Shown here piece after piece: positions 12,232-58,600 of a DNA stretch of 64,000 nucleotides; the stretch's first letter is position 1; every line of letters starts with the position of its first letter. Under the pieces are notes generated by a model. It was not told the DNA's origin. It saw nothing but the letters and a program-made list of their open reading frames with translations, and did no database searches. Position numbers and translations under genes: made by a program. The DNA comes from Geodia barretti (taxonomy: Eukaryota), in assembly GCA_030341885.1 (NCBI GenBank), contig CASHTH010000349.1, positions 1 through 64,000 of the forward strand, written 5' to 3'.

Positions 12232-15200
12232 ATGGCTGGTGTGAGAGTTGAGAGTCAGCGTTCCTTGGAGAATACGCTGCTGTATACCACCAGCGCTTCG
12301 TCTTCAAGCCGCCAGACCAGTTTGAGCTCTGGAACAACCGATCACTTGCGGACACTAACGTCTAATCTGCGATCCTCGGCGCGGGAGGTGCGCGGTACCG
12401 CCCCGACCCGCTCGGTTTTCTCGTCCAACCTCACTCCACACACCTCGTCCTTGCTCCAGGGTAAAGGACGCGGTGGGGCAGGGACGCCCGGCCTCCTCAC
12501 CCAACAGAAACCCCTGTCGACCCTCGGTTCTAGAAGCAGTCTCGCGAGCAGCTCGCTCACACAGCAGAGATCGTCTCTCTCGACCCTCAGAACCACTTCC
12601 ACTGCAGCCTCTTCCAGTCTTCTTAGCTCCACTACTGCTGCAAGAAATCTCACAAAATCGGGCCTTCTATCGTCAAGTCTTTTGACTAGAAGTTCGGTAG
12701 AGAGCAAGCTGACATCAGCATCCCTTCTCACCTCAAAGAAACAGACTTCTCCTGGAGTCGCACGGAAACCAACACCGCCGCAGCTGGTGTCAGGAACAAA
12801 GACTTCTCTTTTCTTTTCAACCACAGCCTCTCCCCAGCTGAGGAAGTCTGGATCGCTTTTGTCTTCCTCGACTGGGAAGGTCTCACCGTCCAAACTCCTC
12901 TTGTCTTCCCAGCTCACCAGAACCTCTCTGTCAAAGAGCACCCTACACTCCAGTTCAGGAGGTCTTCTAAAGAAGGTGCAACCCACTGCTTCAAAACTTT
13001 CATCATCAACGTCAACGTCGAATGAGGAGAAGGAAAAACGTGTCGTAGTCGCAACAGCAGCGAGGCCTGTCACCGAGGAAACAGAGGGGGCCCCTGTGTA
13101 CAAATTCAAATCCGAGGAAGCGCTGGTTCACCAGAGAGAGAAATTCCTGCCCCCTGAAATCGATGCAAACGTTCAGGCCCCACTTGCACCTGTTGGGGAG
13201 ATAGTTCAACTGAAGACGACGGTGATAAATGCCGTGGCAACGTCACTTCTCTGCAGCCCGGACTTCAAGAGTCTGTCCGACCCAACTCGTCAGAACCTCA
13301 CGAAACTCGGCGAACAACTCTCCAATCGTGACCCGGAGTTCATCCTGAAAGTCGCTCTATACACGCGAAACGATCTCAACATTCGAACGACGGCAAATTT
13401 CCTCCTTGCGTTGGCCTCAAACTTACAAACCTGTCGACCTTACCTCCGCAAGTACTACTGCGCCAGCATCCGTCTCCCCTCCGACTGGATTGAGGTGGCT
13501 GAAGTGTACCAGACATTTCATGACAAGTCACTCAACTTTGGCGCACTCCCGACCGCACTTCGCAAGGTAATGGCCTCCAAGTTTGTTGAGTTTGACGTCT
13601 ACCAGTTGGGCAAGTACAACAAGGACAAGTCGAAGAAGAAGGAGAAGAAGGTCGAGAAGAAGAAGAAGGATAAAGGTGAAGAGGGAGGTGAAACGAAAGA
13701 CGATTCTGTCGGCCCTCCACAGAGATCCGATACCAGCACGACCGTTGAGAGCGAGCTGAGTGTAGCCGTTCCCAGCGACACAGAGACGGAGGAAGAAGTG
13801 GAACGACTCAGCTTCACACTGAAGCAGCTAATCCGGAAAATCCACATCTCGGAACCAGTTGAACCGGTCATGTGTCTCCTGGGAAAGAAGTACCCTGAAG
13901 ACCCCGAGACCTTCCGTAGAAGTCGCCTACCTGGGACCTGGGAAGAGGAGCGTGCGGGGAAGAGGATGAAGCTAGCGACCCCAGAAACGTGGGAGACAAC
14001 GGTCTCGCTGCACGGCAACAAGGCCGGTACGTGGGAACAGCTCATCGATCACAACAAGTTGCCGTTCATGGCGATGCTGCGGAATTTACGGAATCTCATA
14101 ATTGCCAATGTCTCACAGAGCCACCATCGGTGGGTGCTGGGAAAACTCAATGACGAGAGAGCCGTTGTCAACAGTCGGCAGTTTCCGTTTCGCTTCTTCT
14201 CCGCGTACGAAGTCATCGCTGAGCTGGAAAAGATTGCAGACGGTGAAATACCTCCGAAATACAAACCAAGAAAAGGGAAAAAAGCACCAAAACCTCCTCC
14301 AAAGGTAGACAGGGAGCTACTTAAGCGCTATCGCTCGGCACTCGACAATGCTCTCAAGATTGCCACCTCGTACAACGTGAAGCCCATCAGTGGATCCACA
14401 CTCATCCTGTGCAACGTTGGAAGCAACATGAACCGATCCTGCACGTCTGCACGAGGCCTCGGAAAACCACGCACGGTCCAAGAAGTGGGAATTCTCCTGG
14501 GGTTGATGTGCAAGTACTCGTGCGAACAGTGCACCATGATTGTGTATGGAGAGAGCAACCACGCTCAGGTGCAGCTGAAGGAAGGAACAATACTCCACAA
14601 CATGGAGCACGTGCAGCAAGTTTCAGTGGAGCAGAAACTCACAGAGAGCGAGGGAGTAATTCCTACAAAGATCCTGTACAACATGCTGGTGAGTCGATCG
14701 CCAGTTGACAACATTGTCTTACTGACGGATGCAATGAAACTGTACGATTCCCAAGGCCGCGAAATGATGGACTTCCTTCAGAAATACCGCCACATGGTGA
14801 ACCCTGACCTCCTGTTTGTGAGTGTCGACCTCAGTGGGAGATCGAGTGGGATATCTGGCACGATTCATCCAGAGCACAAGAATGACGTCTACCTCGCTGG
14901 GTACTCAGATCAGATCCTTCGTTTCATCGCAGAGAGGGGAGACAGTGGACAGTTGACGTACGTGGACAATATCGACAAGGCTTACAACCTAAAGGAGCTA
15001 CCGAGGTCGGCACTGTTGAGCCAAGAAGCCGCCTCCTCACGTACAGCCACCACGTCACTTTCTGCAGAGAAAGCTCTGCTGGCTTCGACGCAGCGACAGA
15101 AATGGAGAACGGTTCGTGTCTTCATCTCTTCCACCTTCAGGGACATGCACGGAGAGAGAGACCTGCTCACGAGGTTTGTGTTTCCCGAACTGCGAGCCCG

Positions 15201-18200
15201 TGCCCACTCCAGGCAAATCCAGTTGTACGAGATTGACCTGCGCTGGGGAGTAACGGAGGAAGACACACGGCATCACCGAGCACTCGAGATCTGCCTCAAC
15301 GAAATCTCTCGCTGCAACTATTTCCTCGGCCTCCTGGGGGAGAGGTACGGGTGGATCCTTAACGACGAAGTCATCGGAAAAGTATCGGATTTCGAGTGGT
15401 TGAAAGACGACTGCGTGGGGCACTCAATTACGGAAGTCGAGATGAAACACGCATGTCTGCGTGACCCTGACACTGCAAACGGGAAAGCATTCTTCTACTT
15501 CCGTGATCCGTCCGTGAGTCTCGCCATCCCCGAGAAACATCGGACTCATTTCGAAAGTGAATCTCAAGAAGCGAGGGAGAAAATCCAGCGGCTGAAGAGC
15601 GAGATACGAACCAGTGGCCTCGAGGTGTACGACGGGTACCACAGCAAGTGGCTGGGGGTCCTGGAGGACAAGCCTATGGTAGGGGGACTGGAGGATTTTG
15701 GACAAAGGGTCCTTCACAACATATGGAATGCCATCAAACGGGATTTTCCAGACGACGAAACCGGTTTGGACCCAGTTGCAGAGGCCACAGCTGCCCACAA
15801 TGCCTTTGCCGAGAATCATGCCGGCAGTTTCGTTGGTCGGAGGAGTCTGCTATCAAAAGCAGAGGAAATGGTGGAGCAAGAAGAGGGAGGGGTTTTGGTA
15901 ATGGAGGGGAAACCAGGATCTGGTAAATCAGCATTCATGGCGGCCCTGGCACAGCAGTGCAGCATCCGCCCATCGTTCGAGGTTCTCACTCACTTCCTCG
16001 GAGCAGCTCCGTCTTCAACCAACATTACTTCCATCCTCACTCGACTGTGCCACGAGATGAAGCGAAGATTCAACCTCGACAGAGACGTTCCTGAAGAATA
16101 CCCAGAGCTCGTGAACACTTGGACGGATTTCTTGGAAGACGGCAGATCTGCCGCTGGCGGTTCGAAACTGTTGCTGTTCATCGACGGACTGGATTTGCTG
16201 GAGGAGAAGCACAACGCGAGAGGGATGGACTGGCTACCGGGGAGACTTCCCACTGGTGTGGTGGTGGTTGTGAGCACAGTGGAGAAAGGAGAGATCTCGA
16301 CCAACTTGAAGAAGAGAAATCCACCTCCCACGTCGCTCACGGTTGGCAGAATGAACGAATGGGACAAGGCCGACATGGTGAGAGAGAAGCTGGCAAGACA
16401 TCGCAAGTCACTGGACGAATCTCCGTTCAACAACCAGATGAAACTCCTCCTCAGCAAGAAGGATGCAGCCAACCCTCTCTTTCTGCACCTGGCCTGCGAG
16501 GAACTCAGAGTGTTTGGCATCTTTGAGGAGGTTTCTTCGTTCCTAAAGTCTCTTCCTCCGACCCTCCCACACCTGCTGCAGGAGGTTCTCGGCAGAATCG
16601 AGGGAGAACTCGGACAAGATTTGGTGAGTCTCCCTCTCTCTCCTCTGTCTCGTCCGCAATGGCCTGAGGGAGTGTGAACTGTCGGGGTTGGCGTCGCTCT
16701 ACTTCATGTCCAAGACAACACAGTCCGAGGCGGATGCTTCCGTGCCAGCCATGACACTATCTCGTCTTCTTCGCTGCCTGCAGGGATTCCTGCAGCCTAC
16801 CAGTGAGAAACCTCTGATCTTCTCTCCCTGGCCCATAAAGACATAGAAACGGCAGTGAAGCTTCGCTACATGAAGGGAAGAGGAGAGAAGGAGAGGGAGT
16901 TTCATCGTCTTCTTGCGACGTATTTCAAGACAGAGTGCGACCCAACTGGTGAACAGACGTATGCCGGGAGCAACGTTCGGGCATTCAATGAACTTCCCCA
17001 TCACCTCATGTGCTCGGGACAATGGAAAGAATTGGAGGAAATCGTGTGTGACGTCAACTTTGTCGTCGCCAAATGTCAGTTGGGTTCAGCCCAGAATCTT
17101 CTGGAGGACTACACACCAAGTTTGGAAGGGGTCCCAGCTGGGAAAGTGAGGGAAATTGCAACGTATGTGAGCCAGCCGCGAGTGGAAATATTCAGATCGT
17201 TTGTCTCCCGAAATTTGCATGTTTTGACAGTCGCCCCGGCACTGGCTCTACAGCAGGCAATCAACGAATCGAGCTCATCTCTGATTGCCACGGAGGCAGA
17301 ACGAGTTCTCCTGGACAACCCCCAACCACTTGTGAGGTGGCTGAATCGCTCACCCGGTGAAAACCGATGTCATCTCACCATCCCGTCCAGCAGTGAAGTA
17401 ACGTGTGTGGCAGTTTCTGGGGACAGCAAGCAGTTTGCAGCTGGGTTCAGAAACTGTAGTGTGAGAGTCTTCAGCACTGCCACCGGCGCCGAGATTCAAT
17501 CTTTCGTCGGACATGCCGCGGAAATCACTTCCCTCTGCTTCGTCGGGTCACATGCTCTCTGCTCGGGGTCACATGACACGAATCTGAGCCTCTGGGACCT
17601 GAAGGGGGGATTCAGGATAGCGAGTCTGACTTCTCACTCTCGCAGTGTGAGGGGATGTGCGGCTGATGCTGCGGGGAAGGTGCTCGTCTCCGTCTCGTGG
17701 GACACAAATATCAGAGTGTGGGACGGGAGAACTGGGAAACAAACGTGTTTCCTCAACCAGAAAGGAGGAAGAAACTGCCCGCTCAACTGCGTCAGTTTCC
17801 ATCCCTCATCGAACCAGCTCATTGCCGTGGGGTCCTGGGACACTACCGTCAAGATATGGGATGTGTTCAGCAGAAAGAGGGTTAAAGTTTTGAAGGGGCA
17901 CCAGACGTCTGTGCAAGCCTGTGCGTACGCTCCAAGTGGTCGCCACATTGTGTCTGCTGCATTGGATGGAGAGGTGAAGGTCTGGTCTACTAAATCAGGG
18001 AGTGCTGTGGGGAGCATTGCTGGACACTTTGACCCAGTGAATGCCATCTCTTACACACCAAACGGACAGTACCTGCTCACCGCCTCAAGTGACCAACTGG
18101 TGAAGGTTTGGTCCGGGAGCCTCGGGCAGCGAGTGGCGAATGTGGGGAAATCGGAATATGGCTATGCCCACTGCGTGGTCCACAGTCGACAGAACCAGAC

Positions 18201-20274
18201 CGTACTGGTAGGCTACCATGACGGTCACGTCAGGAAATTCAACACACAGACTGAGGTTGAAGAATTTGCAGTCAGACTCCACGATAAGGCAGTCGTTGCA
18301 GTTGGAGCTCAGGGAAGATTCAGCATGTCGGCCAGTGCTGACGGAACCATCAAGATATGGGAAGGCCCTTCTTCCCTCCCAAGACACCTACTCCTGGAGG
18401 GACACAAGGCAGGGATAACATGTGCAGCGTGGACCAAATACGGACTCGCATCAGCTGCTGAAGATTTCTCTCTTTTCTTCTGGCCCCATGAACTGACCCA
18501 CTACACCCGAATGTGGAACCAGAACAAATCGTCCACAAAGCTGAGCGTCTACCCCCTAATATCATTGAAAGGGCATACATCCACTATATCTGCTCTCTCG
18601 TTCTCTGGTGATGGACTGAAGATGGCGTCGGCTAGTCGAGACCAGACTGTCATCATGTGGGACCTGATCACAATGAAGGAAGCTCGTACCATGCACGACT
18701 GCCACAAGGATTGGATAACCGCCATCTCATTCCCAGACGCTGGTTCCGATACTCTCATCACCGGTTCCAATGACTTTAACCTGAAGCTCTGGAACGTGAG
18801 CACAGGTGAAGAGAGGATAACTTTCCGCGGACACACGTCGGCCATCAACTCCGTCTCATTCTCACACGGCTACGTTGTGTCAGCTGCATTCGATGGTTCT
18901 GTGAAAGTCTGGACTAGAAAAGGAGTTGAAATAACGACGCTACACTGCCACCAACAGAGGGTGAATGCCTGTGTTTTGGACGTACCTCACACCACAGACA
19001 ACTCATCGTGGGCCGACATTGTGGAACAAGAGGAAGAAGCAAAGGATCAGAAGAGTAAGCTGGAGGATGTGCTCGTCGTAACCGCTAGCGACGATGGAAC
19101 AGTCGGAGTGTGGAAGCCGTTTGTACCGAATGAAGTCACTGCACTTGTTGGCCACTCTGATCGCGTCCTTGCAGTTTCGTCAACCTTCAACAACGAGATA
19201 ATTTCATCCTCTCGCGACAAGACCATCCGAATATGGTCTCCGAAACTCCCCGAGAAAATGGGCGGGGTCTCAGTAACAAGCTCCACCCACGCACACGTGG
19301 GCGAAGTTACATCTGTCACTGCATCTATGCCTTACATAGCCACTGGAGGTAGAGATGGACAAGTCCTTATATGGACTACCACGAGAATTGACGAAAACAA
19401 CAAAAGATGTCTGAATCTGAAGAAGTTGTACTGCATTAAATCGTCAGATGCAGCTGTCACTTCGCTGGCCTGCATCGGCGCAAACAACCGAGTTGTGAAA
19501 CTTGCAGTCGGAAGAGACGATGGGTCGATTGGCAAGTACGAATTCTCCGACACCACGTTTCCCGTGGAGACAGGGGTAATGGGTCCAGCTACTCTAATGG
19601 GTGCCCACCCTGTATCGGACCTGGCTGTAGCTCACGGAGGGAAATGCCTGGTGGCAGGCTCGTGGTCTAAAGTGGTGTCAGCTGTTAGAACGGAGGGAGG
19701 GACGGTGGCTGGTAAAATGGAGGAGCACAGTGGATGGGTGATGGGGGTGACAGTGGTGGAGGAAGGTGGGGAGTATTTTTCTCTCAGTATCGGTCTGAAC
19801 AGGCTCCTGTGCAAGTGGCCTTTGGGTCAAAGTCGCAGGAAGACGCCGTCATCCTCAGCTGTGCGGTATGGAATCCCCAGCGAGGGGAAGAATGATGCAT
19901 GGCTTCTGTGCATATGCCCGGTGAATTCCACGCACGTTGCTATTGGAGACAGCGGGGGGAGGGTGTGGTTTTGGAACCAAGTCACCAGAAAGGTGGACTT
20001 TTCTAAGAAGATCCACAGGTGTGCAATAAATGGAGTGGCAGCAGTTGGGGTTACGCTGGCAACGGGATCTGCTGATGGTTCTATCAAGATTTGGCGGGTC
20101 AGCAGCGGCCGCACTAAAGACATTGTTCAAGTCGGCCATTTCCATGCTCGGTCATCGGTGACGTCATTGAAAGCTTATGCCATGGGCAGAAAGGGGGAGG
20201 GGCAACCGATCATTCTGACTGCTGGCGATCAACTGGGAAACGTGATGCTACTGGAGTACAGTGCCACTGATTAA
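12232..20274 (+). CDS. TEP1: Telomerase-associated protein 1 / vault protein TEP1-like: S/T/L-rich N-terminal repeats, TROVE domain, DUF4062, NACHT P-loop, long WD40 array. Model: exon 12232-16623, intron 16624-16672 (49 nt, GTGAGT..AG), exon 16673-16802, intron 16803-16846 (44 nt, GTGAGA..AG), exon 16847-20274
   Basis: TROVE: DPEFILKVALYTRNDLNIRTTANFLLALAS...; DUF4062: VRVFISSTFRDMHGERDLLTRFVFPELRARAH...IDLRWGVTEED; NACHT Walker A: LVMEGKPGSGKSAFMAAL; WD repeats (SLWDLKGG, IRVWDGRTG, VKIWDV, VKVWS...). The two short introns restore frame 1 to 2 to 1 across stops at 16675 and 16844; spliced total ~2649 aa vs human 2627 aa. Alternative reading of these shifts as assembly indels not excluded. 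Confidence 0.88.
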
Positions 20275-20732: not shown

Positions 20733-22949
20733 TCATTTTCCTACTATAGGTCGGTCCATTTCCTTCAGCTCCACACGATCCACCATGAAATCGAGAGCAT
20801 CTCCCACCAGATACTGCCCGCCTTGTATCTCCTTCAGAGTGATGAACTCCCGTAGACCCCACAGGTAGTTCTTGTCGCCCGTGACAACCCTCCCCGCATG
20901 CTTGTCGCGAGCGATGTGGTCGTAGCTAATCTGCCGCTCGTAGTACTTGTCCTTGTCTCGCTGGTTGATGAGACGGATGAAAATGTCGGCCCGGAGCGGC
21001 CAGGGGATGATGTCATCGTGCTGACCGCGAGTGATGCAACACCAGACGGAGACGTGGGTATCGGTGCCGGCCGCGTCAACCCTCACCACCATCCTGTAGC
21101 CGCGACGACTGGTGTAGAACGGCTCGCTCACAAACGAGTCTTTCTTCTCCCTCCTCTTGGTGAACCGAGAGACAGTGAATGAAAAGGGCGGGGTGGGTGT
21201 GGCTGCCTTCTCCACATATTCAACCTCAGCCATTACTTCCTCCACTCTTTCATTGAGTTCTTGTCTGATTTTCTCCATCTCGTCTTCCACTACCACGGCT
21301 TGCTCACCCACAATCGCATCGACTTTGGTTTTCAACTTTTCCGTGCCCTCAGCTAAACTAACCAACTTTTTCTCTACTTCTGCCTTACTCTCTCTAATCT
21401 CCTTTTCCTGTCTCTCGTGTGCAGTTCTGTGGGCATCATTTGAAACTTCCAGCTTCTCATCCAATTTCTGTTCAATAATAGCTATAAGCTTCTTCTCTTC
21501 CAAAGGATTTCGTTTCGGAATTGCTGCCTCTATCTTGGCTGTCAACTCGTCTTCTGTTTTCTGAACAACAACTGCTACACTGTTTTCCAGTTTTTCAAAG
21601 TCGTCTTTCGGTTGTTTCCGTTCAATCTGCTCCGTCAATGATTTCTCTAGCTCACCGATCGATTTCTCAAATCTTTCCCTCTCCTGCTTCTCCTTTTCCT
21701 CCATTGCCTCCCCCAATCTCTCCATTTCTCCCTTCATTTCCTCCAGACGAGCCACATGCTTTTCCTCAACCCCCGCCAACCTTTCTCCTAGTTCAGTTTT
21801 GATATCTTCAACTCTGCGGCAGCTCTCTGCCAACTCCTTCTCGAGTGATTCGATTCTCTCATCTTTCGCCTTTAGCTCCTCATCCTTTTCCTTTAGCTCC
21901 TCATCCTTTTCCTTTAGATCCTCATTCTTTGCCTTCAATTTCTCATTCTTTGCTGCTAGTTTTTCCTCCAGTTGTTCCTTGAATGCTGCAAATTCGCAGT
22001 GCATTGCCACAAACCGATCATTAGTGTCTTCGACAAAGTTTGTAAACTGAGCCATTCTTTCGCCAGCTTCTTCGCGGAGTCTCTGAATAATTTCATCTCT
22101 CTGCTGGAGTTGTTCCTGCATAGCAACGGTCGTTTTCTCCATCTCTTCCTTGGTGATCAGGGCTTCTTGTTTCGATCGAATTTCGACAATATTTCTTGCC
22201 AGGAGATGGGCGTGGTACAACTGAGTGGTGTTGACATGGTTTTGAAGCTCCTTTCGTGGTCGCTGTTTCGCCGCGCAGCCCAAGTCGAAGAACGGACACA
22301 TCACCGGCTGCAGTTTGCAGTCTCTGTCGCAATGAGACTTCACTTGGGACCGCCGCATCTCCCCCGCGTCGCAGTTATTCGGACAAGAGACGGGGAAATC
22401 CGGACATTCGCCCCAGTGTACGGTTGACAGCTCCCGGTAAGTCGTCTCAACGTCGTTACAGTACTGGCATACGACTATGCGGTGCGGACACTCGTTTTGT
22501 TGATGCCGATCGAGGTCCTGGCGAGGCAGACGGAGGTCGCAGCCCGCGTTCGGGCAGGGAACGAGCTCGAACTGGCAAAGAGGGGTAGGGCCGCGGGGGC
22601 CGGGGGACTCCCCGGCTGCGCCGTTCGGCGGGTGTAAGTGTCGGAGCAAATCACGCAGTTCTCCCTGCCATTCGCAGCCTCTGGCGTTGTTTGGGCAGCG
22701 AACCTTGGCCTGCGAGACAGCTCGCTGACGGCCCTTGTCCAGGAGACCCGTGAACTCCGTTGAGCAGAGGGGGCACAGTTTGTTGGCGAGTCTTTGAACA
22801 CACGACTCGCACAAGTGGTTCCCGCAGCAGCTGAGGAGGAAGGGATCGAGGAGGGTCAGCTTGCACACGGGACACTCCCAATCCTCGGGCGGCCCCACGA
22901 GAAACTCGGCGTCCAAAAGTCGCTCTCGCGAAGCCATTTTCACACACAA
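20733..22949 (-). CDS. TRAF: TNF receptor-associated factor (RING finger, TRAF-type zinc fingers, coiled coil, C-terminal MATH domain), single exon, 738 aa
   Basis: RING: CPVCKLTLLDPFLLSCCGNHLCESCVQRLANKLCPLC; Zn fingers CPNNARGCEWQG..., CPNAGCDLRL..., CQYCN...; MATH: FSFTVSRFTKRREKKDSFVSEPFYTSRRGYRMVVRVDAAGTDTHVSVWCCITRGQHDDIIPWPLRADIFIRLINQ...; uninterrupted ORF. Confidence 0.9.
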   Translation of the reverse strand: MCVKMASRERLLDAEFLVGPPEDWECPVCKLTLLDPFLLSCCGNHLCESCVQRLANKLCPLCSTEFTGLLDKGRQRAVSQAKVRCPNNARGCEWQGELRDLLRHLHPPNGAAGESPGPRGPTPLCQFELVPCPNAGCDLRLPRQDLDRHQQNECPHRIVVCQYCNDVETTYRELSTVHWGECPDFPVSCPNNCDAGEMRRSQVKSHCDRDCKLQPVMCPFFDLGCAAKQRPRKELQNHVNTTQLYHAHLLARNIVEIRSKQEALITKEEMEKTTVAMQEQLQQRDEIIQRLREEAGERMAQFTNFVEDTNDRFVAMHCEFAAFKEQLEEKLAAKNEKLKAKNEDLKEKDEELKEKDEELKAKDERIESLEKELAESCRRVEDIKTELGERLAGVEEKHVARLEEMKGEMERLGEAMEEKEKQERERFEKSIGELEKSLTEQIERKQPKDDFEKLENSVAVVVQKTEDELTAKIEAAIPKRNPLEEKKLIAIIEQKLDEKLEVSNDAHRTAHERQEKEIRESKAEVEKKLVSLAEGTEKLKTKVDAIVGEQAVVVEDEMEKIRQELNERVEEVMAEVEYVEKAATPTPPFSFTVSRFTKRREKKDSFVSEPFYTSRRGYRMVVRVDAAGTDTHVSVWCCITRGQHDDIIPWPLRADIFIRLINQRDKDKYYERQISYDHIARDKHAGRVVTGDKNYLWGLREFITLKEIQGGQYLVGDALDFMVDRVELKEMDRPIVGK
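21840..21965. repeat. In-frame tandem 21-nt repeats inside TRAF coiled coil (encode EELKEKDEELKEKDEELKAKD)
   Basis: ctcctcatccttttcctttag repeated; ctcattctttgc variants. Confidence 0.8.
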
Positions 22950-28900: not shown

Positions 28901-30286
28901 AGACTTGTTCAAAGGTGCACCAGAGCGATATGTGTAATCCAGTTTGTCCAAGGTCTTGTACTATACATCTGTTCACAAAGACGTTACAACTAAATAAAGT
29001 CTAACTTTACACAGATAATAAAGTAGTTCTCTCTCTTTTGCTAGGCTCCGACATTCCTGCTCTTCCTGGACTGCGTGTGGCAACTGTCTCTTCAGTTTCC
29101 GTCCGCGTTCGAGTTCTCAGAGTTCTATCTTCTCCAGCTGCACAGCCTCACCTACGCCAGTCTCTACGGCACGTTTGTCTTCAACTCTCCCAAAATCTGT
29201 CTCCAGGTGGCCATGTTATCCCGACACAGTCAGTTCTTTGGGTCCGATGAGGGTGTGCCCGATTCGAATGAGACGTGTTACGAAGGCCTCCTCCGCCCGG
29301 CGTGGGGACACTGGCGTGACAACCTCACTCGAGAGGACCGCGAATACTGCCACAACCCACTCTACTATATCTTTGGAAACAGCGAAGCTCGCTACGACTT
29401 CAACACCAGTGACCCGCTGCCGATGTACGACCAATTTAGTTCAATTTTCGACGATACTGCCCCGAATCTCGTTGTGGGGGGTAGTTATGGACTCTATAAC
29501 AGGGACAGCCCCATGAAAGACCTCCATGTGGCGGGGAGGGGAAAGACGAGTCACCATTACCAGCAGGGGCTCCTTCTGCCAGAGACATCTGGGTGTTCTG
29601 TCAAACCATGGCTTGGGTTCTTTGCCCGGCACATCCCAGATTTTCAGGAGCACTTTGCCGAGCAGAGGAGAGTGAGGGAGAGAGAGGTACGCCTCGTAAA
29701 GGATGTTCGGAGGTTAAAGGACACTCTGAACGAACTGGAATTGAGTGTGGGTGCTATTACCAGCGACCTCACTAGTTTTGTTGGTGCTATTCTCGCCGCA
29801 CGAGAGAGGGAGAGACGAAACCGCATGTCGAGTCTCTCTCCGGACCACGCCCACCGGCCACGCCTATCTGCCATGTTAGTTCCCTCGGACGACGTGGAGG
29901 TCAGGGGTTCAGAGGTCAACTCGTCGTCCAAGACCCTCCCAACCAAGGTCCAATCACTGGCCGAGTTCACTGAGACCTTATACATGTTCTCTGACGACAG
30001 GGGTACACCCTCTGGTCTTAGAAAATCGGCCGATGGGGCAGTGGGTGGAGCTTCGCCGGGTCCCGGGAACGCCCTCTCTCCCGGCAGTGGGCGGAGTCCA
30101 ATTACCAAGACGAGGTTACGAGTGACGCGGACTGAGTCCATAGAAAGTTCCAGTCTTCATTCCAGGACCCCTGGACCCGCGTCGGGACATATACCACTCC
30201 TGGCCAACAAGATACTGATCAGAGAGCAGAACGTTGGGCCTGAAGAGGAGGAAAGAGGAGGAGAAACAGCCGGCAAAAGAATCTAG
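25953..30286 (+). CDS. MTMR9: Myotubularin-related pseudophosphatase (MTMR9-like; catalytic Cys replaced), ~13 exons; first intron 54 nt (25983-26036)
   Basis: Exon 1 MAANSIAKLPG; GRAM/PH-like GTLSCTNYCFHFEP; LVVPANSRDNTLDYVASLHHGNRLPVWCWSHPNTGVSLTRGGAP; phosphatase-loop region reads IDHRPVFLQGGRDLSCVVSSLAQLMMDPHYRSISGFQALVQKDWVAMGHPFSTRH (active enzymes have VHCSDGWDRTAQ); last exon 29075-30286 FEFSEFYLLQLHSLTYASLYGTFVFNS + coiled coil RRVREREVRLVKDVRRLKDTLNELE. Confidence 0.85.
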
Positions 30287-30505
30287 TCCAGTAGATGTAG
30301 AATGTACAGATCTATGAAAAATGATTATTATGTTTCCCACTTCACTGCATTATGAACCGACATTATATCTCTTGATGTGCAAAAAAATTCTTGTTGTTGC
30401 TCGTGTAGCGCTGTGTGTATACGCGAAGCACATTCCACCAACGCGCCCCTAGTGCGCGCCCTAGTGCGCGCATGGTTGAAAGGTGTAGCTGCACTCCCCG
30501 TGGCA

Positions 30506-31166
30506 ATGTCGTCTCTCAGGTTCGTCATCTTCCTCGGCACCGTCCGTGACGGCAACTTCGGCCAGAGAGCCGCCAAGTTATGGTGAAGAAGCTGGAGGCG
30601 CGCGGCCACCAGACTACGTTGCTTGGTAAGGCTCAGTGGGCAGCCCCTCCTGCTATATACATAATACCTCTCTTCATACTTTCCCCTCTCTCCTCAGATC
30701 CTGATGTTCTGGATCTGCCTCTGCTCAAGAAGCCACTCCACTTCTACAAGGACCGGAGCCAGGCACCCAAGGTCCTCCAGGAGACCAACCAAGCAATCGT
30801 GGATGCCGATGCCTTTGTCATAATCTCAGCAGAGTACAATCACTGCATGCCACCGGCTCTCACAAACATGATGGATCATTTCCCAATAGCCTCCTACAAG
30901 TACCGGCCCTCGGGGATTGTCTGCTATTCCATGGGGTCATTCGGAGGTGTTCGTGCCGCCATGCAGTGTCGCATGTTGCTCGGAGAGCTAGCAACGCCGA
31001 GTGTGGGCCCACTTTTGCAATTCCCCAGATCAACAAGGCTCTCTCGGAGACTGGGGAGCCTCTGAATGACCACATGGACTCGGGGGCTGATAGGCTGATC
31101 AACGAGCTGGAGTGGTACGGGCTGGCTCTCAAGAACCATAGGGATACGGCTGGTCTGCCCAAGTAA
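30506..31166 (+). CDS. NAD(P)H-dependent FMN reductase-like (flavodoxin-like fold) gene, 2 exons (intron ~30627-30697, 71 nt, GTAAGG..CAG); reading frame broken twice by apparent 1-nt deletions (~30580 and ~31000), so either a pseudogene or assembly indels
   Basis: MSSLRFVIFLGTVRDGNFGQRAAKL / VKKLEARGHQTTLL | DPDVLDLPLLKKPLHFYKDRSQAPKVLQETNQAIVDADAFVIISAEYNHCMPPALTNMMDHFPIASYKYRPSGIVCYSMGSFGGVRAAMQCRMLLGELATPSV / GPTFAIPQINKALSETGEPLNDHMDSGADRLINELEWYGLALKNHRDTAGLPK-stop; resembles SsuE/Lot6/ChrR-type FMN reductases. Confidence 0.55.
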
Positions 31167-31576: not shown

Positions 31577-34500
31577 TTACCTCTGATGGGGAGTGAGGTA
31601 GTCCCTGGTCGTTAGGTGAGTCAGCGGCCTGCTGATGATGTAATCAGTGAGTGTCTGTCGGTCTCCCTCCAGCACTCCATCTCTGATGGCCCTGCAGGTC
31701 CCCAGTCTCTTCACCTCAGTGGCGATGAAACTAGACATCGGGTCCTCTCTTTCCGCACTCCCTCCCAGCCTCCTCAGAGCACCCACCAGCTCCTCTGTCA
31801 CCATGGCACTCTCCTCTACCACCAGTCTGTCTCTCAGGGTGGAGACAACTCGAGACTCTGTCCCATCTTCTTTGCCTCCCCTCTCCCTCTCTTCCCTGTT
31901 CCCTCCTTTCCCCTCTGCCAGAGGTGGGAGAGGGTGTGGCAGGCCTCGGCTCTCACTGCCGGCACCTGCACACAATGTCACAATCCTCACATCTCTCACT
32001 CTCCACACGGAGCACACCACAATACACCTTGTCACAGCGAACACTCCACAGCAGTTGCTCCATTACATCTCCATCGCTACAACCAATGCTTCTGAGGGCT
32101 GCAGAGATTGTAACAGTCTTCATCAAGCCACTAAGCATTCAAGGTAGAAGCCACAGCAAGTAAAAGATATATGCCTGTCCATGGCTTATAGGTAATGCAA
32201 TATGCACATGTTTCATAGTATGGGACATGTGATGGTTATGGCATGCACAACAAAGACTTACCTCTGAGAGTGTGTGCCCTGATGCTCCATATCGGATCTC
32301 CCAGCAAATGAATGAGACACTGTAGCACTGCCTCGTCCCTTATAGCCAGCTGCCCACATATCTACAGAGATTGAAAATGCAGAGGGAGGAACTACAGTAA
32401 ATTAGCAATAGGGTCAGTGTATGGAGGGTAAGACCCTGTAATCTTACAGCGATGGCCTCAAGTCTGATGGAGGCATGTTGGTCAGAGAGACAGGGGAGGA
32501 AGACTGAGAGGAGCTGGGGAGTCATCAGCCTCAGGGAACTCATCTTCTTGAGAGCATCCAACTTCTCCACTTCAGCTCCTTCACTCAGTCTCCTTGCCAG
32601 CTCGTCGTGCAGCAGCTGAGAGGAGATGAGGTTAATATGTATACTAGCTATAGATGACTATGTTGAGAAGATAAGATGGTGCATAATGGCTGCGTCAAGG
32701 TGGATAAGGTTCCATTTGTACAAGGTGCGCTATAAAGTGCTCAGGGCTCTAGGGGCCTAAGGTAGCTACCATTACAGCTGTCTTTGAGTTTACTTTTCCA
32801 TGTCCAGTTTTTCCGAGAGCTTGAGAGGCGGCATCTCTGACTGCAGGGCTCCAGTCTTCCCAGCTCATGACCACCAGATGATGACACACGTCCTGTGGCA
32901 GAGAACGAGACAGATTTAGTCCCTCTTTCTCCCTGACGTTGTGTGTGTGAGACTCACGGTGGAGAGAGGGCAGAGGAGAGAGGGGAGAACTCGACAGGCC
33001 AGCAGCCTCTCCTGCCATCCTCTGCTTGTCAACTGCTCAGCCAACAAGGCGTGCACCAGAGGCTGCAAACAAGAGACGAAAGTTGATTTTCATCAAAGTA
33101 TGCATCGTTAAAAATCCAGTGTAGAAAGCTATACATGAAAAGGATAGATATCTATTACCAGAGTGAACTGACCATTCTGTCGCTAAGTCTTGCCAACATG
33201 TTCCCGGCACTCTGTCTGATGGAGGAGTCAGAGCTGTTGAGTAGGAACCACTGACACCTCTCCACCACACACTCCTCACACACCCCACCCTCCACCAGGC
33301 ACCGGAGCCCCGCCCACTCGTCAACATTGTCGATCCCTCTCCTCCCCAGGGCCTCCAGCAGGGAATCCACTGCTGCTAGGCTCCATCTCCCCAGACAGTG
33401 GAGGGCTATGGCGGCGGGTACATGGACCCCAGTCGATGCCTTGTCCTCCACGATCCTCTCCAGCACCCTCACCACCTCCCCACTCTCACAGAGTTCACGT
33501 CCTGATTTCTCCCGAGCAAGACCGCCACAGGCCACCATTCCCTTTGCTCTGGTACTGTCGTTGAGACTGAGAATATTGCTGAGAACTGCAGCTTCAGTCG
33601 AGTCTTCTGGCTGTATGTGGATGCACTTTCTCTTGCTCCAGTCCTTCACTGGGGAACAAATTGTCGTCTTATTTCTCTCCTCTTACAACACAAATAGCTC
33701 CCGGGCCTTCTAGAATCATTACAAGGCTACACACACTACTTACAGATGAGGCAGTACTGATGTTGAGACGAGAGCCTGTTCCCACTGAGTACAGGTGAAG
33801 ACTTCCCATCTCCAGTGAGCTCTCTGCCATCTCCTGCCTCGGTCTGGGATCTGTCTCCACATACCCACTGGAGGTGTTCCGCTATCTGTGTTTTGCTACC
33901 AGAGCATTATGTGAACCACGCCATGTCCATTTCCTATCTTGTCTCCCTTACCGTCCCTATAATTTCAAAATACGTGGATTTTTACTAGAACTCACAGGTG
34001 CCGGGTGAGGCAGAGCAGTCCATCTCCTAGTTCCCTTCACCACTGACTTGTCCTCCTCTTCTTCCTCCTCTGTCTCACACCACTCACTGTGTGGCTGAGG
34101 ATACCTTCTCTCTAGAACCTAGTGCAGAAAACAATGCATTGATACAAACACTGACGTACTGCAAAACCTTGATGATGTGCATATATACCTTGGTGAAAGT
34201 GTTGTTGTTGTCGAGCAGTATGAAATCTCCCTTTCCTCTCCTCCAAATAGGCTTGGCACCTTTCCCAAGACAAACTGTGTAGTTATCTTCTCTCCTCTCC
34301 TCATCTTCCTCTTCCACCTCAGCCCCATTCGCCTCTTCTTCTTCCTCCTTTTCCTCCTCTTTCTCTCTCCTACCCCCACCTAATCGGACAGCTGTGGAGC
34401 TGGTAACACCCCCCAACAATCTCTCCTCCCACTGAACAGACTTGGCCACTGGCACAGTTCTCAACTTGCGATACAGCATGCCACTGGGGTGAGAAGCAAC

Positions 34501-34640
34501 ATGGTGTGCTGAGCTAGACACAGATTTCAGCAGGGCCAGTTCTGAGGAACGGCAGCGTTCATTATTGGTGGGTCTATCGTGAGATTGGACGCTCGGAGGG
34601 CCGTGTAGGTAGCACAAGTGCCGCTTGGTATCCACCACTA
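31577..34640 (-). CDS. HEAT-repeat protein gene, multi-exon; 5' end unresolved
   Basis: Exons with HEAT-like repeats: 33155-33649 (LERIVEDKASTGVHVPAAIALHCLGRW...SSIRQSAGNMLARLSDRM, donor AATG|GTCAGT), 32749-32900 (EDWSPAVRDAASQALGKTGHGK), 32340-32570 (DQHASIRLEAIAV), 31577-31870 (RDRLVVEESAMVTEELVGALRRLGGSAER...RDGVLEGDRQTLTDYIISRPLTHLTTRDY); donor ACCAAG|GTATAT ~34190. Confidence 0.45.
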
Positions 34641-35228
34641 CTCGCCTGTTGCGATGACGCCTCTCTCTCTCATAGTGGCGTCTGGAGGTAATGTTGGTAA
34701 GAAAACATCCCCTAGATTTCTCAGAGCCTGTCTGTAGCCGACGGAGTGGGGGCTGCGAGAACTGACCACGTCCTCCGTGAACGTCAGGGAACGGCGGAGC
34801 TGGCTCACTTGAACCCGGAGAAGGCTACCGTCTCTTCCAGCTACGACAGTGCGCCTTCTCCTCGGCGGTTCACTCCTGCTACTGGCTGCCACGTGACGAG
34901 TCGAGCGACGATTTCCATCTTCGTTGACTCTTATGCTGGGAACGTGTACTCCTGCTCCACAGGCATACAAATCCTTCACCGGTAGCCGACCCGACATCTC
35001 CCCGGCGGCCGAGAGAGCTCAATAACGTCGCCATTGACAACGCTAGACCACACCCCCTTTGCCTCCCCCGGTACAAAACTTGTCGAAAAAGAAAATTTTT
35101 TACACACAACAGTTAGACCTATATAAGTCTCTGATACAGTAAACAAGTGCAGAAAATTAATGATGACTGACACTAGACTAAAAGGTAAAACTTCCCAACC
35201 AGGGTGGGTCAGGTGACAGTCACGTGAC

Positions 35229-51469: not shown

Positions 51470-54400
51470 TCATTTGGTGAGTGGTGTTGGTGAGGTGGGC
51501 GAGGTGTTGGTGAAGGTAGTAGGGCTGGAAGGGAGGGTGGTGGTGGTGTACGTGTGGATCTCAACACTTCCCTCATCGAGGAGCGGCTCTCTGAATGACG
51601 TGTGGCCAACAACACGAGGCCTGTTCTCCTGAATACCTCGGTTTGTCCTGTCCACACCTGTCGGTATGCCATCAACATACGTTGCATCGTCAGGAATGCT
51701 CTGCGGAACGTGGAGCACAATTCTTTTCATCTTCTTTGCGCAGTACTTTGTGTAGCATTTCAGCAGGCAGCTCGTCAGTTTTGGGAACCGCACAAACATT
51801 CGGTAGAAGAACACTCCAAACATCACGATGTAAGCCAGCACCACGAGTACAGAGGTGTACTCCGTGGCACTTCTCATGGTTGTGACCTGTTGATCGTGGC
51901 CGTCGTCGAGTTTGGCATTGAAGAAGAGAGAACCGAGGAACAGCATAATCAGGTTCAAGAGGAATAGACTGTCAAGGGAATTGACCCATTTGGACTGGAA
52001 CGGTTGAAGCTCCAGCTGCAGGAACAGTAGGACTGTCAGGAAGAAGACAGTTACAAAGGTGCTGGTTGGCGGAGCCGTAAACGAGGCCATTATGATGGGA
52101 ACCCACCTGAAGATTAGTCTCAGACCCAACCAGAACCGAAATCTCGGTTTGAACGGGTTCCAGAACGTGTCGTAGAACGGTTTGTATTTCTTGAGGAACT
52201 TGTTACTGTAGAGAACTGTTGGGAAGAGGAAGATGATGGGTATGGGTATGATGTAGAACAGGATCAGGAGAATGGCAGCGAAGGCGAGTAGCCCGTGGAA
52301 TCGAGTGAAATAGACCAAAGTGGGGTCTAGCATCCAGCGTACTAACTTGTGGTTGTCTTCAGTGTAAATCACAGCCGTGCTGAGAAGGTCAAATGAAAAC
52401 TGTAGGATACTCACATAGGACATAATCAGAAGTGTCGCAAATGCCTCGATTGTTGCAAATGCAGTCTTGGCTCGGACCTTGCAGCATTTGGACTTGAACA
52501 CGGAGCGGAGTACGGCCATCAGAAGAGAGAGGTAGAGAGGGAAACTCAGCTCCCACCAACTTCGCTCCAATGCCGACATGTTGCTGTGGAAGCAAGTCTC
52601 AATACCCCAAGTTCAGAGTGAGCCAGTTGGCCAGGACAGCCACTCTGGGTCCGCCATCACTTGGAGACAGGATCCTCTCATACAGACTGACTATATTGGC
52701 CCAGAACAGAATTCCGTTCAGGTAGCCACTGGAGAGGTTGACAGGGAATATCACGAGTAGCGCTATCAGGAGAGCTCCTAGAAGCAGAAACAGGAGAATA
52801 ATGACGGCATAGTTGTTGGAGCACTTCAGGCATCGGGGACTGCCAAAGACATTGGTGTACCCATCCAGACATGATCCGCAGAGCACACCTCCCCTGTTGA
52901 GACTGGGTCGACACTGGAGGTCAAAATTGACAGAGTTGTTCCTCACAGAGATGTTGGCATCGCCTGGCTCACAGAGACCTCGAATGCAGTTCCCCACTGC
53001 AAATGTAGATCTGTCCACCGGTCCAACCCACAGCTGTGTCGGGACTCGCAGGACAAGGTTTGTAGAGTCACACTCAACCTCTCTTTCCAACAGCTCCTGG
53101 CTGCACTCACAACGCAGTGTGGTCTCCCTGTACTCAAACCCCACGGGACAGTCCAGCAAGTTGACACGAATATCCACCTGGGCTGGTCGATAGCCAACGT
53201 CTAGACTATATACTACAATGTTGGTTGTGATATTGGTAGCTCCCAGCACTGCGAGAGAAGTGGAGAGATTGCTGTTGGCAGTATACCCAGTGATTATATT
53301 GGGACCCAGGGCAGGTATGATCGTCTGAGACAAACCCTGGGAGAGTTCTACGAAGGAGCCCAATATGGTTGAAATGCTCTGGTCCAGACTGTCCACCGGT
53401 CGAATGGGGACTTGTGCTACCTCCCCCGGAGCAAGACTGTACTCTGTGATCCCATTCTCAATGTACACTCTGCTGACTGGAGTGCGAACGTTTCGGATTC
53501 CAGTTGGATCCGGGGTAAACTGGAACAGATGGCTGAAATGGGTGTCGAGTATCTGCAAGACGTTGATGGTGTTGTAGGTGAGAATGAGAGGTTGAGACCA
53601 GGGGCAGTTGAGCAGAGCCGAGCCAAAGATTGTCCCTGCCAGCAGGGCAGAGTTGTTGGTGAAGCTGACACTGAAGCTGCTAGTGTTGAAGCTGCAGTCG
53701 TCACAGAAGGAGAACTGGTCGTAGTTGAAGTACATGAAACAATCAAACAGTGTCGGGATCGGGGAACTGGTGATCTGGTTCACGTAGAGACCTCCACCGT
53801 ACACCCTCGCCACGTTGTTCGACACATCCAGAGAGGATCTCGGCAGAATTACGAGAAATGCTATCTGGAGAATTATCCCTGCTCCGTAGAACCCTATGTT
53901 TCTGGCGATGGATACGTTTCCAGCTATGCCAATGATGCTGCTAGTTCCCTGCAGCGCGGAGCCAATGTTATCCTCAAACACGCAGTCGCCAGCCAGCGTG
54001 ACGTTGATGGCATTCACGTCGAATACGGCGGTGCTGTCTGAGCTGGAGATGGAGGTAATATCTCCCAGTGTCTCCAGTTTGTTAGCTGTGATTTTGATGT
54101 TCCAGGCCAACACCTGGATCCCTAGTACTCTGGCATGGAGTTTCAGCTCCTGAATATAGACTGCAGCACCTCGCGTCGCTCTGTTCCCGGTGAACACACA
54201 GTCCTCGATGAAGAAATGTGCACTGTCTGTCAGATCGGCAACGGCTGTGGTAACGAGGGAGAGAATCTCAATTGCCCCTCCGTTTATTGCACCGTTGTCT
54301 GTAAAATTTGAGTCCCTGGCTACAAACCCAATCCTCCTCTCGTGAATGAAGACTTGTACTTCAGGAAAAGGTGACACTAGGTCGTTGTACACGCCAATCG

Positions 54401-55445
54401 CTCCTCCACTTGTGAGAAAGTCGAGGTCAAATTCACTCGACAAGAAGCCGTTTCTGGTAAACAAACAGTTGTCAAACACGGCATATGAGTGAGACGCTCC
54501 CTGGAAGATCCCCACGTGAGCTGCACTGCCGTAAGTGGCCGAGTTCTCTTCAAAGACCGTGGAGACAGTGGTAACATTCATAGCAAAGCAGGATTGTCCA
54601 AATATGGCGGTGATCCCTCCACTTCCACCGATAGGGTACCCAGCTTCCCGAACCTCGAGGGAGTCGCGATAATTAAACTCCACTGCTGCCAGGTCAGAGC
54701 ACTCGGTGTTACCAACAAAACTGCTGTTTGTGATTGTCAGGGAATAGAAATCGAGATTTTCGCAGGTTGAGATGTTGGAGTCAACGAAATCCTGAAAGAG
54801 AAAGAATGCCCCTCCGCCAATTCTCTCTCCAGTGTTCCTGATGTAGTTTGTGTTGTTGACAAAGGAGCACGTCTTTTGCGCCTGTCTGTTGTTGGAGAAA
54901 CGGCAGTTTGTGATGCTGGAATCTCCAACTACATTGATCCCAGCCAGCCCTAGACCTGTGGTGTTGGTGATAGCCACATCTTCCATTTCCAGACCAGACA
55001 CGCTGGCCAGGTAGACTGCCACTCGAGTTCCGGTGGGAACTTTGAAAAACAGCTGCAGTAGCTCCTGAGTGAGACTCACTGCCTGTGTCAAGGTCTCTCC
55101 TGTCACTCCACACTCCATGATCTGTAAGTTCCTCAGTGTAAGACCCGATATATTGAGGAACATCAGTCCGACTCCATCAGAGCAAGTGATGACAACATCA
55201 GTTTGGTCCAGCCCAACTATGGTGATATTGTCAACTCCACTCACCAGTACTGCCTCACTCAGGCAGTGAACACCACTCTCTAGGGAGACAACAGAATTTG
55301 AAGAGATGTTCTGAAGAGCCTTGTGTAGTGTTCCATCTGAGGTGCAAGGTCCACTTGGCTCCAGCCTTTGCCCCCTGCCAACCTCTAGCAGAAGGCAGAC
55401 TGCCACAATGATGCCAAGCAAACCACACTTTCCCATTTCCCTCAC
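51470..55445 (-). CDS. Beta-helix/multi-TM paralog A: signal peptide, Pmp-like right-handed beta-helix repeat ectodomain, EGF-like Cys-rich modules, multi-pass TM C-terminus; reading frame interrupted at ~52580-52601 (in-frame TGA plus +1 shift), so a possible pseudogene, assembly error, or (unlikely) a 22-nt intron
   Basis: ORFs 52599-55445 (948 aa, MREMGKCGLLGIIVAVCLLLEVGRG...) and 51470-52579 (369 aa TM block) are collinear with paralog B; repeats such as SNFTDNGAINGGAIEILS, FTNNSALLAGTIFGSALLNC; upstream TATA-like (cctttatagg) and CCAAT at 55514-55529. Confidence 0.6.
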
Positions 55446-55624: not shown

Positions 55625-58600
55625 TCATTGAATATGATTGGTATTGTTGATTGGCACAAGGTCAGCTAGTCCTTCCTCCAGTAGCGGTTCTCGGAGTACG
55701 GAGTAATTTACCACAGGGGGCGGGGCTTTCTCTTTGTCCTGGGGTACCCTGGTCTTTGTGGGAGAGCCCGGGGTGGGCTGGTCTCCCTCTCCCTCGCTCA
55801 CTGTCGAGTTTTCCCTCATTTCCTCTCCATCTTGGCTCCCACCTGACACACTATCACCGTCCGTGTGTGGCTGTGTTAGTGGAGTTGTTTCTCTGATGAA
55901 TATTTCAGCTCTTTTCCTGCGAGTAAGACGGGAGTAGAGAGAGGCAAATGGCCTGCGAATGACGGGGAACCGGTGCTGTACATGCCACAGCACCACTAGC
56001 AGAATGGCCACGTAGGCCAGAGTGACAAAGAACGTAAAGTACTTAAACTGAGCCCTGTGGTAGGGGATGTAGCCTTTGTTATCTTCATTTGCAGTGATGG
56101 AGATCTGAAAGTACAGGGCCCCCATGGCCAGCATTATTATGTTACTCATGAAGAATGTGTCGAGAGTGTTTCTGAAAAATCCGTCAAACGGTTGTATGGT
56201 TACCTGGAGGAACAGTGTACAGACGGCAAATATACCTAGAAATAGGATGTTCATTGGTTGAGGAACGACATAGGCAGTGGTGTAAGGGATCACTCGTAGG
56301 AGAAGACGTAATCCAACAAAGAATCTGAATTTGGTCTTGAACGGTGCCCAGAATGCGTCGAGCACTGGTTTTATCTTTACTCCGAGTCTTGTGGTGAATG
56401 CGATGCCAGGGAACGCTAGGATGAGGGGAGGAGGCAACACGACAGTCAGCAGCAGAAAGCAAGCCAGAATGACCAGGAACTTGTGGAGACCATGGAAATA
56501 CTCCTGGTTTGGGTCACTTCTCCAGCTGAGGTAAGAGGCTCCGTCAACAGAACGGAGCAAGAGAGGGCTCAGTAGCTCTATACACACCTCCAACATGGTG
56601 GCATAGGACATGAGGAGGATCGTGGCAAACAACTTAGCAGCGGAGAACTTTGCACGGCTGAAGAACCGGGAGAGACGGCGGGATTTCTTTGAGAGAAGGG
56701 TGACAATGATCATGAGGAGGAGGAGGTAGAAAGGGAAGACCAGTCTTAGAGCCACTTTGTCCAAGGTTGTCATCCCATCGAAGAAACAATGCCCGATTCC
56801 AAAGTCCAGATTGAACCAGGCGACCACAACAAATATGGCAATGTTTCTACTACTGGTGTTGAGAATTGGAACGTATATGGAGAGGACGTTTGTGTAGAAA
56901 AGAATCGAATTCAGGTAGCCTTCGGACACCGTAATGTGGAGAAAGAGGATCCCGAATGTAATGACTACGCCGCCAAAAGCGAAGAGAATGATGAGTGAGA
57001 GACCATAGTTGTCTTGACACTGAGTGCATCGGTGGGAACCCAACTGGATGCTGTAACCCTCGGCACACTGCCCACAGAGGATGCCCGAACGGTGGTACCG
57101 CGAATGACACAACAGATCAAACCCCGGCGGTTTCACCTGTCTCTCTCCGGGGCTGCAAAAGTCAGATCTGCAGTCCGCGACGATGAAAGAGTTGTCCGGT
57201 CCCGGCCCCACCCACTTATTATTGGGGACGGTGAAGTTCATCGAAGTGGAGTTGCACTGAATGTCGTTGTGGTTCATGAGCCCCGGCTCACACTCACACC
57301 TTCCATTTTGGTACTGAAACCCGACTCTGCACTCAGTGAGGTTAATCTTGAACCCTGTGTGTGAGTAAGAGTCCGTGGCGTAGAGGTAAATGGTGACATC
57401 ATTCACATTCTTAGCTCCGGTCACAATCATAGGTACAAGGTCGCCATATTGGAGCTCATTAGCAATCTGCAGGAAGCTGAAACTCGAGAATCCGAGCAGC
57501 GACGAAACGTTTGGGTGTCCAGGGCTGGGTTTGGAGGAGATGAGGACAGGCAGGCTCTGGTTAAGATGGTCGTAGCCACTCACGTTGAGATAGAACAGCT
57601 CACCAGGTGAGTAGCTCAGTTGAAGAGAGCTGTGGATAGTTAGTTTGTTTGTGGGAGTGGTGACTGCACCGACAGTGGTCGGATCACTGCTGAATCTGAA
57701 CGAATCGTTCAAGTCAAGGTAGAGTATGTCTAGAACGTGAGGTCGGTTGTACTTTTCCCTCAGCTGCATGCTCCAGGGACACGTGTCGAGAGTTGAGCCG
57801 AAAATCAGACTCCCGAGAGGTGCCAAGTTGTTGTTCAGCTCCAGAGTAAAGTTGAGAGCCTCAATATCGGGACAGAGGTCCTCTTCAAAACAGATGGTGT
57901 CCACATTTTCGAAGAAGAGGAAGCAATCGTGGTGGTTAATGTCGGGGGAAAACGCAATGTGATTGACATACACCGCCCCACCTTCTACTACGGCTGAGTT
58001 GTTTTCCAAAACCAGATGAGAATTGTTCACTAGAACAATGTAAGAGTTTGCGATAAGGCTAATAGCACCGCCAAACGAGCCAGTATTGTTGCAAATTACC
58101 GTCCGGTCGTGGAAATTTATGACTGACGACACCGAGCGAATGGCAGCTGCAAAGTTATCGGCGATCAGATTATTCTCTCCCTCGAATGTCACGTTGACTC
58201 CCTGGAACTCCACAGTAGCCGAAGTGTCTAACTTTGAAGAGGGTATGTTACCAGGGGCATCTTCTGAATAATATATCTTATTATTGGTGAGGACTGTGTT
58301 ACGAAGGACAGCTTTCATCCCTGGCTGAAGACCGCTCTGTTTCAGCTCTTCGATGTGCATGGCTGCTCCCACAAGAGCTACGTTGCCACTCAGTCTACAG
58401 CTGTCCAGAGTAACAGTGTCTCCTCCCCTCGTCTTGTACTTGGAAAAGATGTTGATTGCCGCCGAGTATGACCCTCTATTCTCAGTCAGTGTACATCCCT
58501 GTAGGGTGACATTATTGCTCTGTAATAGCGTAGTACCAGCTCCCTGATTGCTGGGGTGAGCGACATCTCTGACCATATAGAATCCAGAGCCATGCGTTAG

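Follow-up and report, generated by a model that had tools for sequence, protein, structure and literature searches.

The locus at positions 30506 to 31166 (plus strand) of the Geodia barretti stretch analysed here is very probably an intact, vertically inherited orthologue of an animal-wide NAD(P)H-dependent FMN reductase (ChrR/YieF/YhdA class), and the two frame breaks which interrupt it are very probably assembly errors. The whole stretch, 64,000 nucleotides from the start of contig CASHTH010000349.1 (GenBank assembly GCA_030341885.1), is referred to below as the window. The biological news is slight: this is an ordinary, conserved and already annotated sponge gene with a real and ancient intron. 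A flavin reductase of bacterial appearance turns out to have been resident in animals since before the sponge-bilaterian split, and its intron is conserved. The practical value lies in the correction of the public G. barretti protein model CAI7998423.1 and in a caution concerning the neighbouring gene. Clustered 1-nt frame breaks in this CLR-based draft are not to be taken as pseudogenisation.

The coding sequence (PF03358, FMN_red) consists of two exons separated by a GT-AG intron (Table 1). The FMN-phosphate loop LGTVRDGNFG is located in exon 1, and the intron contains a pyrimidine tract. An earlier note made from the DNA letters of this stretch had described a spliceosomal GT-AG intron of 71 nt; the intron is real and its position is conserved, although its length is 72 nt. 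It is at least 73 nt long in other assemblies of the species, where the GG at 30630-31 reads GGG. Because the intron is free of stop codons and its length is a multiple of three, the open reading frame 30580..31065 runs straight through it. A search of the window with tblastn revealed no second copy of the reductase gene.

Table 1. Features of the reductase locus and its surroundings (window coordinates; L002 is a contig of a related sponge, L001 and L003 to L006 are other assemblies of G. barretti)
Feature	Position	Strand	Remarks
Long ORFs	12232-16677 and 16855-20274	+	1481 and 1139 aa
TRAF-like single-exon gene	20733-22949	-	738 aa, intact in the window; the orthologues of L002 and L003 carry zf-TRAF and MATH domains
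Myotubularin-related phosphatase, last large exon (PF06602)	29075..30286	+	stop 220 nt before the FMN_red ATG
5' flank and UTR	30340..30505	+	166 nt; at least 7 window-private small indels, 0 substitutions
Exon 1	30506..30625	+	ATG 30506-30508; encodes MSSLRFVIFLGTVRDGNFGQRAAK[F]MVKKLEARGHQTTLL and base 1 of an Asp codon; aligns with full-length orthologues
Frame break 1	30578..30579	+	TT in the window; L002 and all five further assemblies of G. barretti read TTT (Phe codon); one T missing
Truncated public CDS	30580..31065	+	internal ATG 30580; intron spliced 30625/30698; out-of-frame stop after frame break 2
Spliceosomal GT-AG intron	30626..30697	+	72 nt; phase 1, Asp codon split G/AT; public annotation (P0126) splices exactly there
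Exon 2	30698..31166	+	DPDVLDL...HRDTAGLPK; TAA stop 31164-31166; carries the SAEYNHCMPPALTNMMDHF motif
Frame break 2	31013..31016	+	TTTT in the window; TTTTT in L003, L004, L005; TCTTT in L001, L006
Multi-exon neighbour gene (part)	31577..34997	-	window-private 1-nt deletions at ~31909 and ~34673
Long ORFs	52599-55445 and 55625-59653	-	948 and 1342 aa

Some variation in intron length was observed. Three of the other G. barretti assemblies (L004, L005 and L006) carry a 12-nt insertion (CCCTCCTGCAGG) at intron positions 30642-30644, a within-species length polymorphism which is also visible as 'AAPPAGPPAIY' in a read-through ORF (P0127). The related sponge has an orthologous intron of about 150 nt (L002 10133-10284) which starts with GC and not GT and may be of the GC-AG type; as it keeps the frame and contains no stops, a prokaryotic gene caller read through it, giving a 250-aa product (P0001).

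Both frame breaks, which the earlier note had placed near 30580 and 31000, could be located precisely (Table 1). Translated without repair from the ATG at 30506, the gene yields 26 residues (MSSLRFVIFLGTVRDGNFGQRAAKLW, followed by a stop): MSSLRFVIFLGTVRDGNFGQRAAK extends to the AAG codon (30575-77), after which come TT-ATG and a stop two codons further on. A one-base shift at break 1 recovers MVKKLEARGHQTTLL as far as 30625. The context of this break is AAG TT ATG, for an expected AAG TTT ATG. Exon 2 reads DPDVLDLPLLKK...LGELATPSVGP up to the frame change at 31013-16 and FAIPQINKALSE...HRDTAGLPK-TAA beyond it. Here the context is CCAC TTTT GCA, for an expected CCAC T[C/T]TTT GCA, and the missing base occupies the position of a synonymous C/T polymorphism. 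Restoring one base per break gives a protein of 196 aa, which was used for the Pfam search.

This repaired protein matches PF03358 with an E value of 1.4e-26 and 93.3 bits (cut-off 24), residues 5-152 falling on profile positions 2-150 of 152, that is, the whole domain. The family assignment made in the earlier note stands, with a match far beyond chance. A narrower candidate, the MsuE FMN reductase equivalog of NCBIfam, was rejected as sub-threshold (19.5 bits for a cut-off of 212.5). Across 16 sequences from animals and bacteria, residues G11, R14, E86, Y87, N88, P92, P93 and N97 do not vary.

The nature of the frame breaks was approached by comparison with five independent short-read assemblies of G. 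barretti (L001 and L003 to L006, from five ENA analyses), all of which cover the reductase gene and are 97-99% identical to the window. Every one of the five reads TTT at site 1 and GGG in the intron, and has five bases at site 2. The three 1-nt losses (break 1, intron, break 2) are unique to the window among the six G. barretti sequences. Variants were then polarised over about 12.7 kb, according to the assembly to which they are private. The window accounts for 24 private 1-nt indels, compared to 7 in all other assemblies together, and for 51 private substitutions, compared to 83. The excess of indels relative to substitutions in the window corresponds to an odds ratio of 5.6 (Fisher p 1e-4, or 1e-3 with a conservative count). 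Since this excess is specific to indels, it matches the signature of long-read consensus error.

Two neighbouring regions point in the same direction. The first is the patch immediately upstream of the gene, which looks like unpolished long-read consensus. Its indels include +AT, -G, -A, +T/-G, a 12-nt tandem duplication of CCCTAGTGCGCG and a 4-nt loss (GGTA), and were called against four other assemblies which are identical to one another across 30340-30505. The second is the multi-exon gene downstream, where the two window-private deletions split conserved exons over two frames. In L001 these exons form unbroken ORFs of 126 aa and 304 aa (the 304-aa ORF being called in L004 too), and the orthologous ORFs of L002 extend across both junctions. 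The public models of this minus-strand neighbour are probably wrong as well.

The published G. barretti genome was obtained from PacBio RSII/Sequel reads (coverage 19x mean, 14x median), assembled with Flye --meta and subjected to one Pilon round with Illumina reads, with a BUSCO completeness of 71.5% (PMC10542158). All three 1-nt losses, that in the intron included, would be residual consensus errors of this low-coverage PacBio CLR/Flye/one-Pilon draft, and the reads of the reference individual presumably carry the intact sequence. At site 2, the lost base is the very one that varies between C and T, and a long-read consensus built from mixed haplotypes would be error-prone there. Uninterrupted ORFs of 738-1481 aa occur elsewhere in the window and the errors must therefore cluster locally, in roughly the 28-35 kb region. 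Besides these long ORFs, two considerations count against an assembly artefact. The reported 340x Illumina polishing ought to have cleared simple 1-nt errors. Moreover, the other assemblies represent other individuals or samples, so that "window-private" could in principle mean individual-private.

It may accordingly be asked whether the frameshifts are genuine, in which case the sequenced individual would carry an allele (null or pseudogene) that lost its function recently, the gene being intact in other individuals. The breaks do exist in the deposited sequence, the very long ORFs of the window imply that the assembly is not generally ridden with indels, and those distinguishing the window from L001 lie mostly between conserved coding blocks. 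This explanation is nevertheless unlikely. Neither break is seen in any of the five other assemblies, a neighbouring conserved gene is broken by two further window-private 1-nt deletions, and a patch of indels without a single substitution fits consensus error rather than natural divergence. The 5.6-fold higher ratio of private indels to substitutions and the use of an assembly method prone to such errors weigh in the same sense. Finally, the reductase coding sequence differs from that of L001 at three sites, all synonymous, and its dN/dS relative to the syntenic orthologue of the related sponge is 0.056, a value which shows the gene to be under purifying selection. The null allele had initially been favoured, on the strength of ORFs of up to 1481 aa and of indels falling between conserved blocks; it was dropped once the variants had been polarised with four more assemblies, and the deletions in the neighbouring exons and the upstream indel-only patch also argued against it. 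The earlier note had left a choice between decay into a pseudogene and local assembly indels: the breaks absent from all five assemblies, the low dN/dS and the deletions of the same type in the adjacent gene speak against decay, and the intact assemblies together with the excess of window-private indels favour the second possibility.

These errors have propagated into the databases. The public protein CAI7998423.1 ('FMN-dependent NADPH-azoreductase [Geodia barretti]', 137 aa) is an exact string match to the broken window reading. The top database match (P0002, 99% identity) belongs to a 90% cluster which includes it. Since the frame breaks are read as consensus errors, the 137-aa model is an artefact which owes its truncation to two assembly indels. 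It is devoid of the first 25 residues and hence of the FMN-phosphate loop, both of which are present in the repaired protein, and it ends in 18 out-of-frame residues (LLQFPRSTRLSRRLGSL), where the other assemblies support the true 196-aa protein. The gene family is already known, the locus is already annotated in its truncated form and annotated orthologues span invertebrate phyla.

The genomic context is that of a eukaryotic host. The window is colinear from 20.1 to 39.8 kb with a 294-kb contig of the related sponge (L002), in which the reductase orthologue is intact and the order myotubularin-related gene, FMN_red, multi-exon gene is retained. Further upstream, the long ORFs 12232-16677 and 16855-20274 both match a single 2477-aa gene of TROVE/NWD1/WD40 type in L002; they are in the same frame, 178 nt apart, and the interval could be an intron or contain an in-frame stop.

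G. barretti is a high-microbial-abundance sponge, the sponge metagenome is rich in bacteria, and the reductase family is predominantly bacterial. A gene derived from a bacterial symbiont or contaminant, or a recent bacterial insertion, might thus be suspected. The probability of such a bacterial origin of the locus is nevertheless close to nil: the position of the spliceosomal intron is common to three other animal phyla, the best homologues are animal proteins, the gene lies 220 nt downstream of a myotubularin-related gene and is followed by a multi-exon gene in an order shared with a related sponge, and it was recovered in five other assemblies. The shared intron, animal homologues, flanking genes and five assemblies refute this origin. 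The eukaryotic flanks and the gene order kept in L002 bear out the earlier note, which had argued for a host gene and not contamination.

Homology searches (the best 120 matches listed for each, about a quarter of matches being named) place the protein among animal sequences. About the top 110 of the 120 matches listed are sponge-like or named animal proteins. Animal orthologues, 47-70% identical, are annotated in at least 10 phyla. Identity is 62% for Amphimedon, 50-56% for Lottia, Littorina, Dreissena, Mya, Owenia, Branchiostoma, Lingula, Aplysia and Trichoplax, and 49% for Bugula. A search with the amphioxus protein adds the hemichordates Saccoglossus, Ptychodera and Glandiceps, the echinoderms Anneissia, Antedon and Diadema, the tunicate Styela, the millipede Chamberlinius and the homoscleromorph sponge Oscarella. 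The groups in which orthologues occur are therefore sponges, placozoans, molluscs, annelids, brachiopods, bryozoans, echinoderms, hemichordates, amphioxus, a tunicate and a millipede. Vertebrates, insects and nematodes are not represented among the named matches listed. Methylorubrum and Methylobacterium, at about 51% identity, are the first named bacteria among the matches listed. The closest matches among those listed are thus not bacterial and orthologues exist in other animals, which is not the pattern of a recent horizontal transfer. The statement of the earlier note that the family is "not a standard metazoan component" was overstated, and the closest homologues are ordinary metazoan genes, an outcome which the note itself had named as refuting its reading.

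The intron provides a further argument. Its phase-1 position, within the Asp codon (G/AT) of a conserved 'DP', is the same in Geodia, Trichoplax, Lottia and Branchiostoma, that is, in Porifera, Placozoa, Mollusca and Chordata. Identity of position and phase in four phyla implies that the gene and its intron are older than the divergence of these phyla, and a gene which predates the animal radiation rules out recent transfer. The earlier note had proposed an ancient acquisition or a lineage-retained gene: the animal clade and the shared intron favour lineage retention, and an acquisition of recent date is not sustained.

In trees constructed by neighbour joining on Kimura distances (small samples, and not maximum likelihood), 14 animal sequences form a single clade against 22 sequences of the nearest bacteria in each of 100 bootstraps, and the sponges cluster together. 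Animal monophyly and the shared intron together imply that any bacterial acquisition preceded the split between sponges, placozoans and bilaterians. A protein from the amoebozoan transcriptome of Copromyxa protea (P0233, EukProt EP01127) is about 46% identical to animal and bacterial sequences alike. With 20 animal sequences and Copromyxa, the split which groups it with animals against bacteria is recovered in 200 of 200 NJ bootstraps, a placement which could reflect an older eukaryotic origin, contamination or long-branch attraction.

A more remote bacterial contribution concerns the origin of the animal clade only, and is compatible with an intact, vertically inherited gene in G. barretti. 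It has been considered that a single ancient transfer introduced a bacterial FMN reductase into the animal stem or earlier, followed by intron gain, vertical descent and patchy loss. The nearest non-animal relatives found are indeed bacterial, 46-52% identical, full-length and almost gapless in alignment, and come from many phyla (for example Methylobacterium, Isosphaeraceae, Acidobacteriota and Myxococcota); a scan with one bacterial genome per species returned 565 relatives, the best of them in this same range of identity and again from many phyla. This level nearly equals that between the sponge and non-sponge animals (53%), and no fungal or choanoflagellate orthologue occurs among the named matches listed. 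The inference with regard to other eukaryotes is, however, limited by the named share of about a quarter of matches and by the listing of the best 120 per search, and the NJ trees are drawn from a small sample. The Copromyxa sequence hints at an older eukaryotic clade, with the possibility of long-branch attraction or contamination already mentioned, and weighs mildly against acquisition in the animal stem. On balance an ancient transfer seems possible though rather unlikely. The same doubtful standing applies to its more detailed version, according to which the intron was gained before the sponge/placozoan/bilaterian split and the gene survived chiefly in marine invertebrates while disappearing from familiar model lineages. 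The near-bacterial identity of about 48-52% is compatible with this version.

Structures of ChrR and YhdA have an N-terminal FMN-phosphate loop, G-[ST]-x-R-x-x-[SN], and an E-Y-N segment which packs on the flavin. Both elements are found in the sponge protein, as the LGTVRDGNFG loop and as SAEYNHCMPPALTNMMD (SAEYNH segment). By analogy with the family, these two elements (G-T-x-R at the N-terminus and E-Y-N) would bind FMN non-covalently, and two electrons would pass from NAD(P)H to the flavin and on to quinones or similar electrophiles. The sponge enzyme may thus be a small cytosolic detoxifying quinone reductase with a flavodoxin fold. Its activity and substrates are predicted from family membership. 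A literature search on FMN reductase or PF03358 in Metazoa yielded no paper on the biochemical characterisation of an animal member, and one on FMN reductase with horizontal transfer and sponges yielded nothing relevant.

The animal orthologues (Amphimedon LOC100635930, Trichoplax 'chromate reductase', Lottia LOTGIDRAFT_161461, Branchiostoma Hypp8111, and those of Saccoglossus, Anneissia and Styela) are about 200 aa long, align over their full length with 49-65% identity and share the motifs of the Geodia protein. Their annotations vary between quinone reductase-like, NADPH-dependent FMN reductase and FMN-dependent NADPH-azoreductase. The Branchiostoma and Lottia genes carry extra introns, unlike that of Geodia, and the Amphimedon gene differs in being intronless. 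In Amphimedon queenslandica (GL345140.1, L007 3001-3616), a 1-nt frame change at residues 33/34 is the reason for which NCBI labels the sequence 'LOW QUALITY PROTEIN'; this is a probable further case of an assembly indel in the same gene family.

Members of the YhdA/YieF/chromate-reductase family have a flavodoxin-like fold, use FMN as cofactor and carry out two-electron reduction of quinones, azo dyes or chromate. The solved structures matched by the sponge protein are the B. subtilis YhdA azoreductase (1nni, 3gfq), E. coli YieF/ChrR (3svl), the Gluconacetobacter chromate reductase (4h6p) and P. aeruginosa PA1204 (1rtt), with phmmer E values from 9e-10 to 1.6e-4 and, for YieF, an alignment over query residues 3-177. 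These proteins belong to the same Pfam family, but their sequence similarity to the sponge protein is distant. Other counterparts are the bacterial SAEYNHSIPPALSN subgroup reductases (Methylobacterium/Methylorubrum, Isosphaeraceae, Acidobacteriota and others), of about 192 aa and 46-52% identity. They are colinear with the sponge protein from the N-terminus to the C-terminal G-x-P, and differ in having no intron and in forming a clade apart from the animal proteins.
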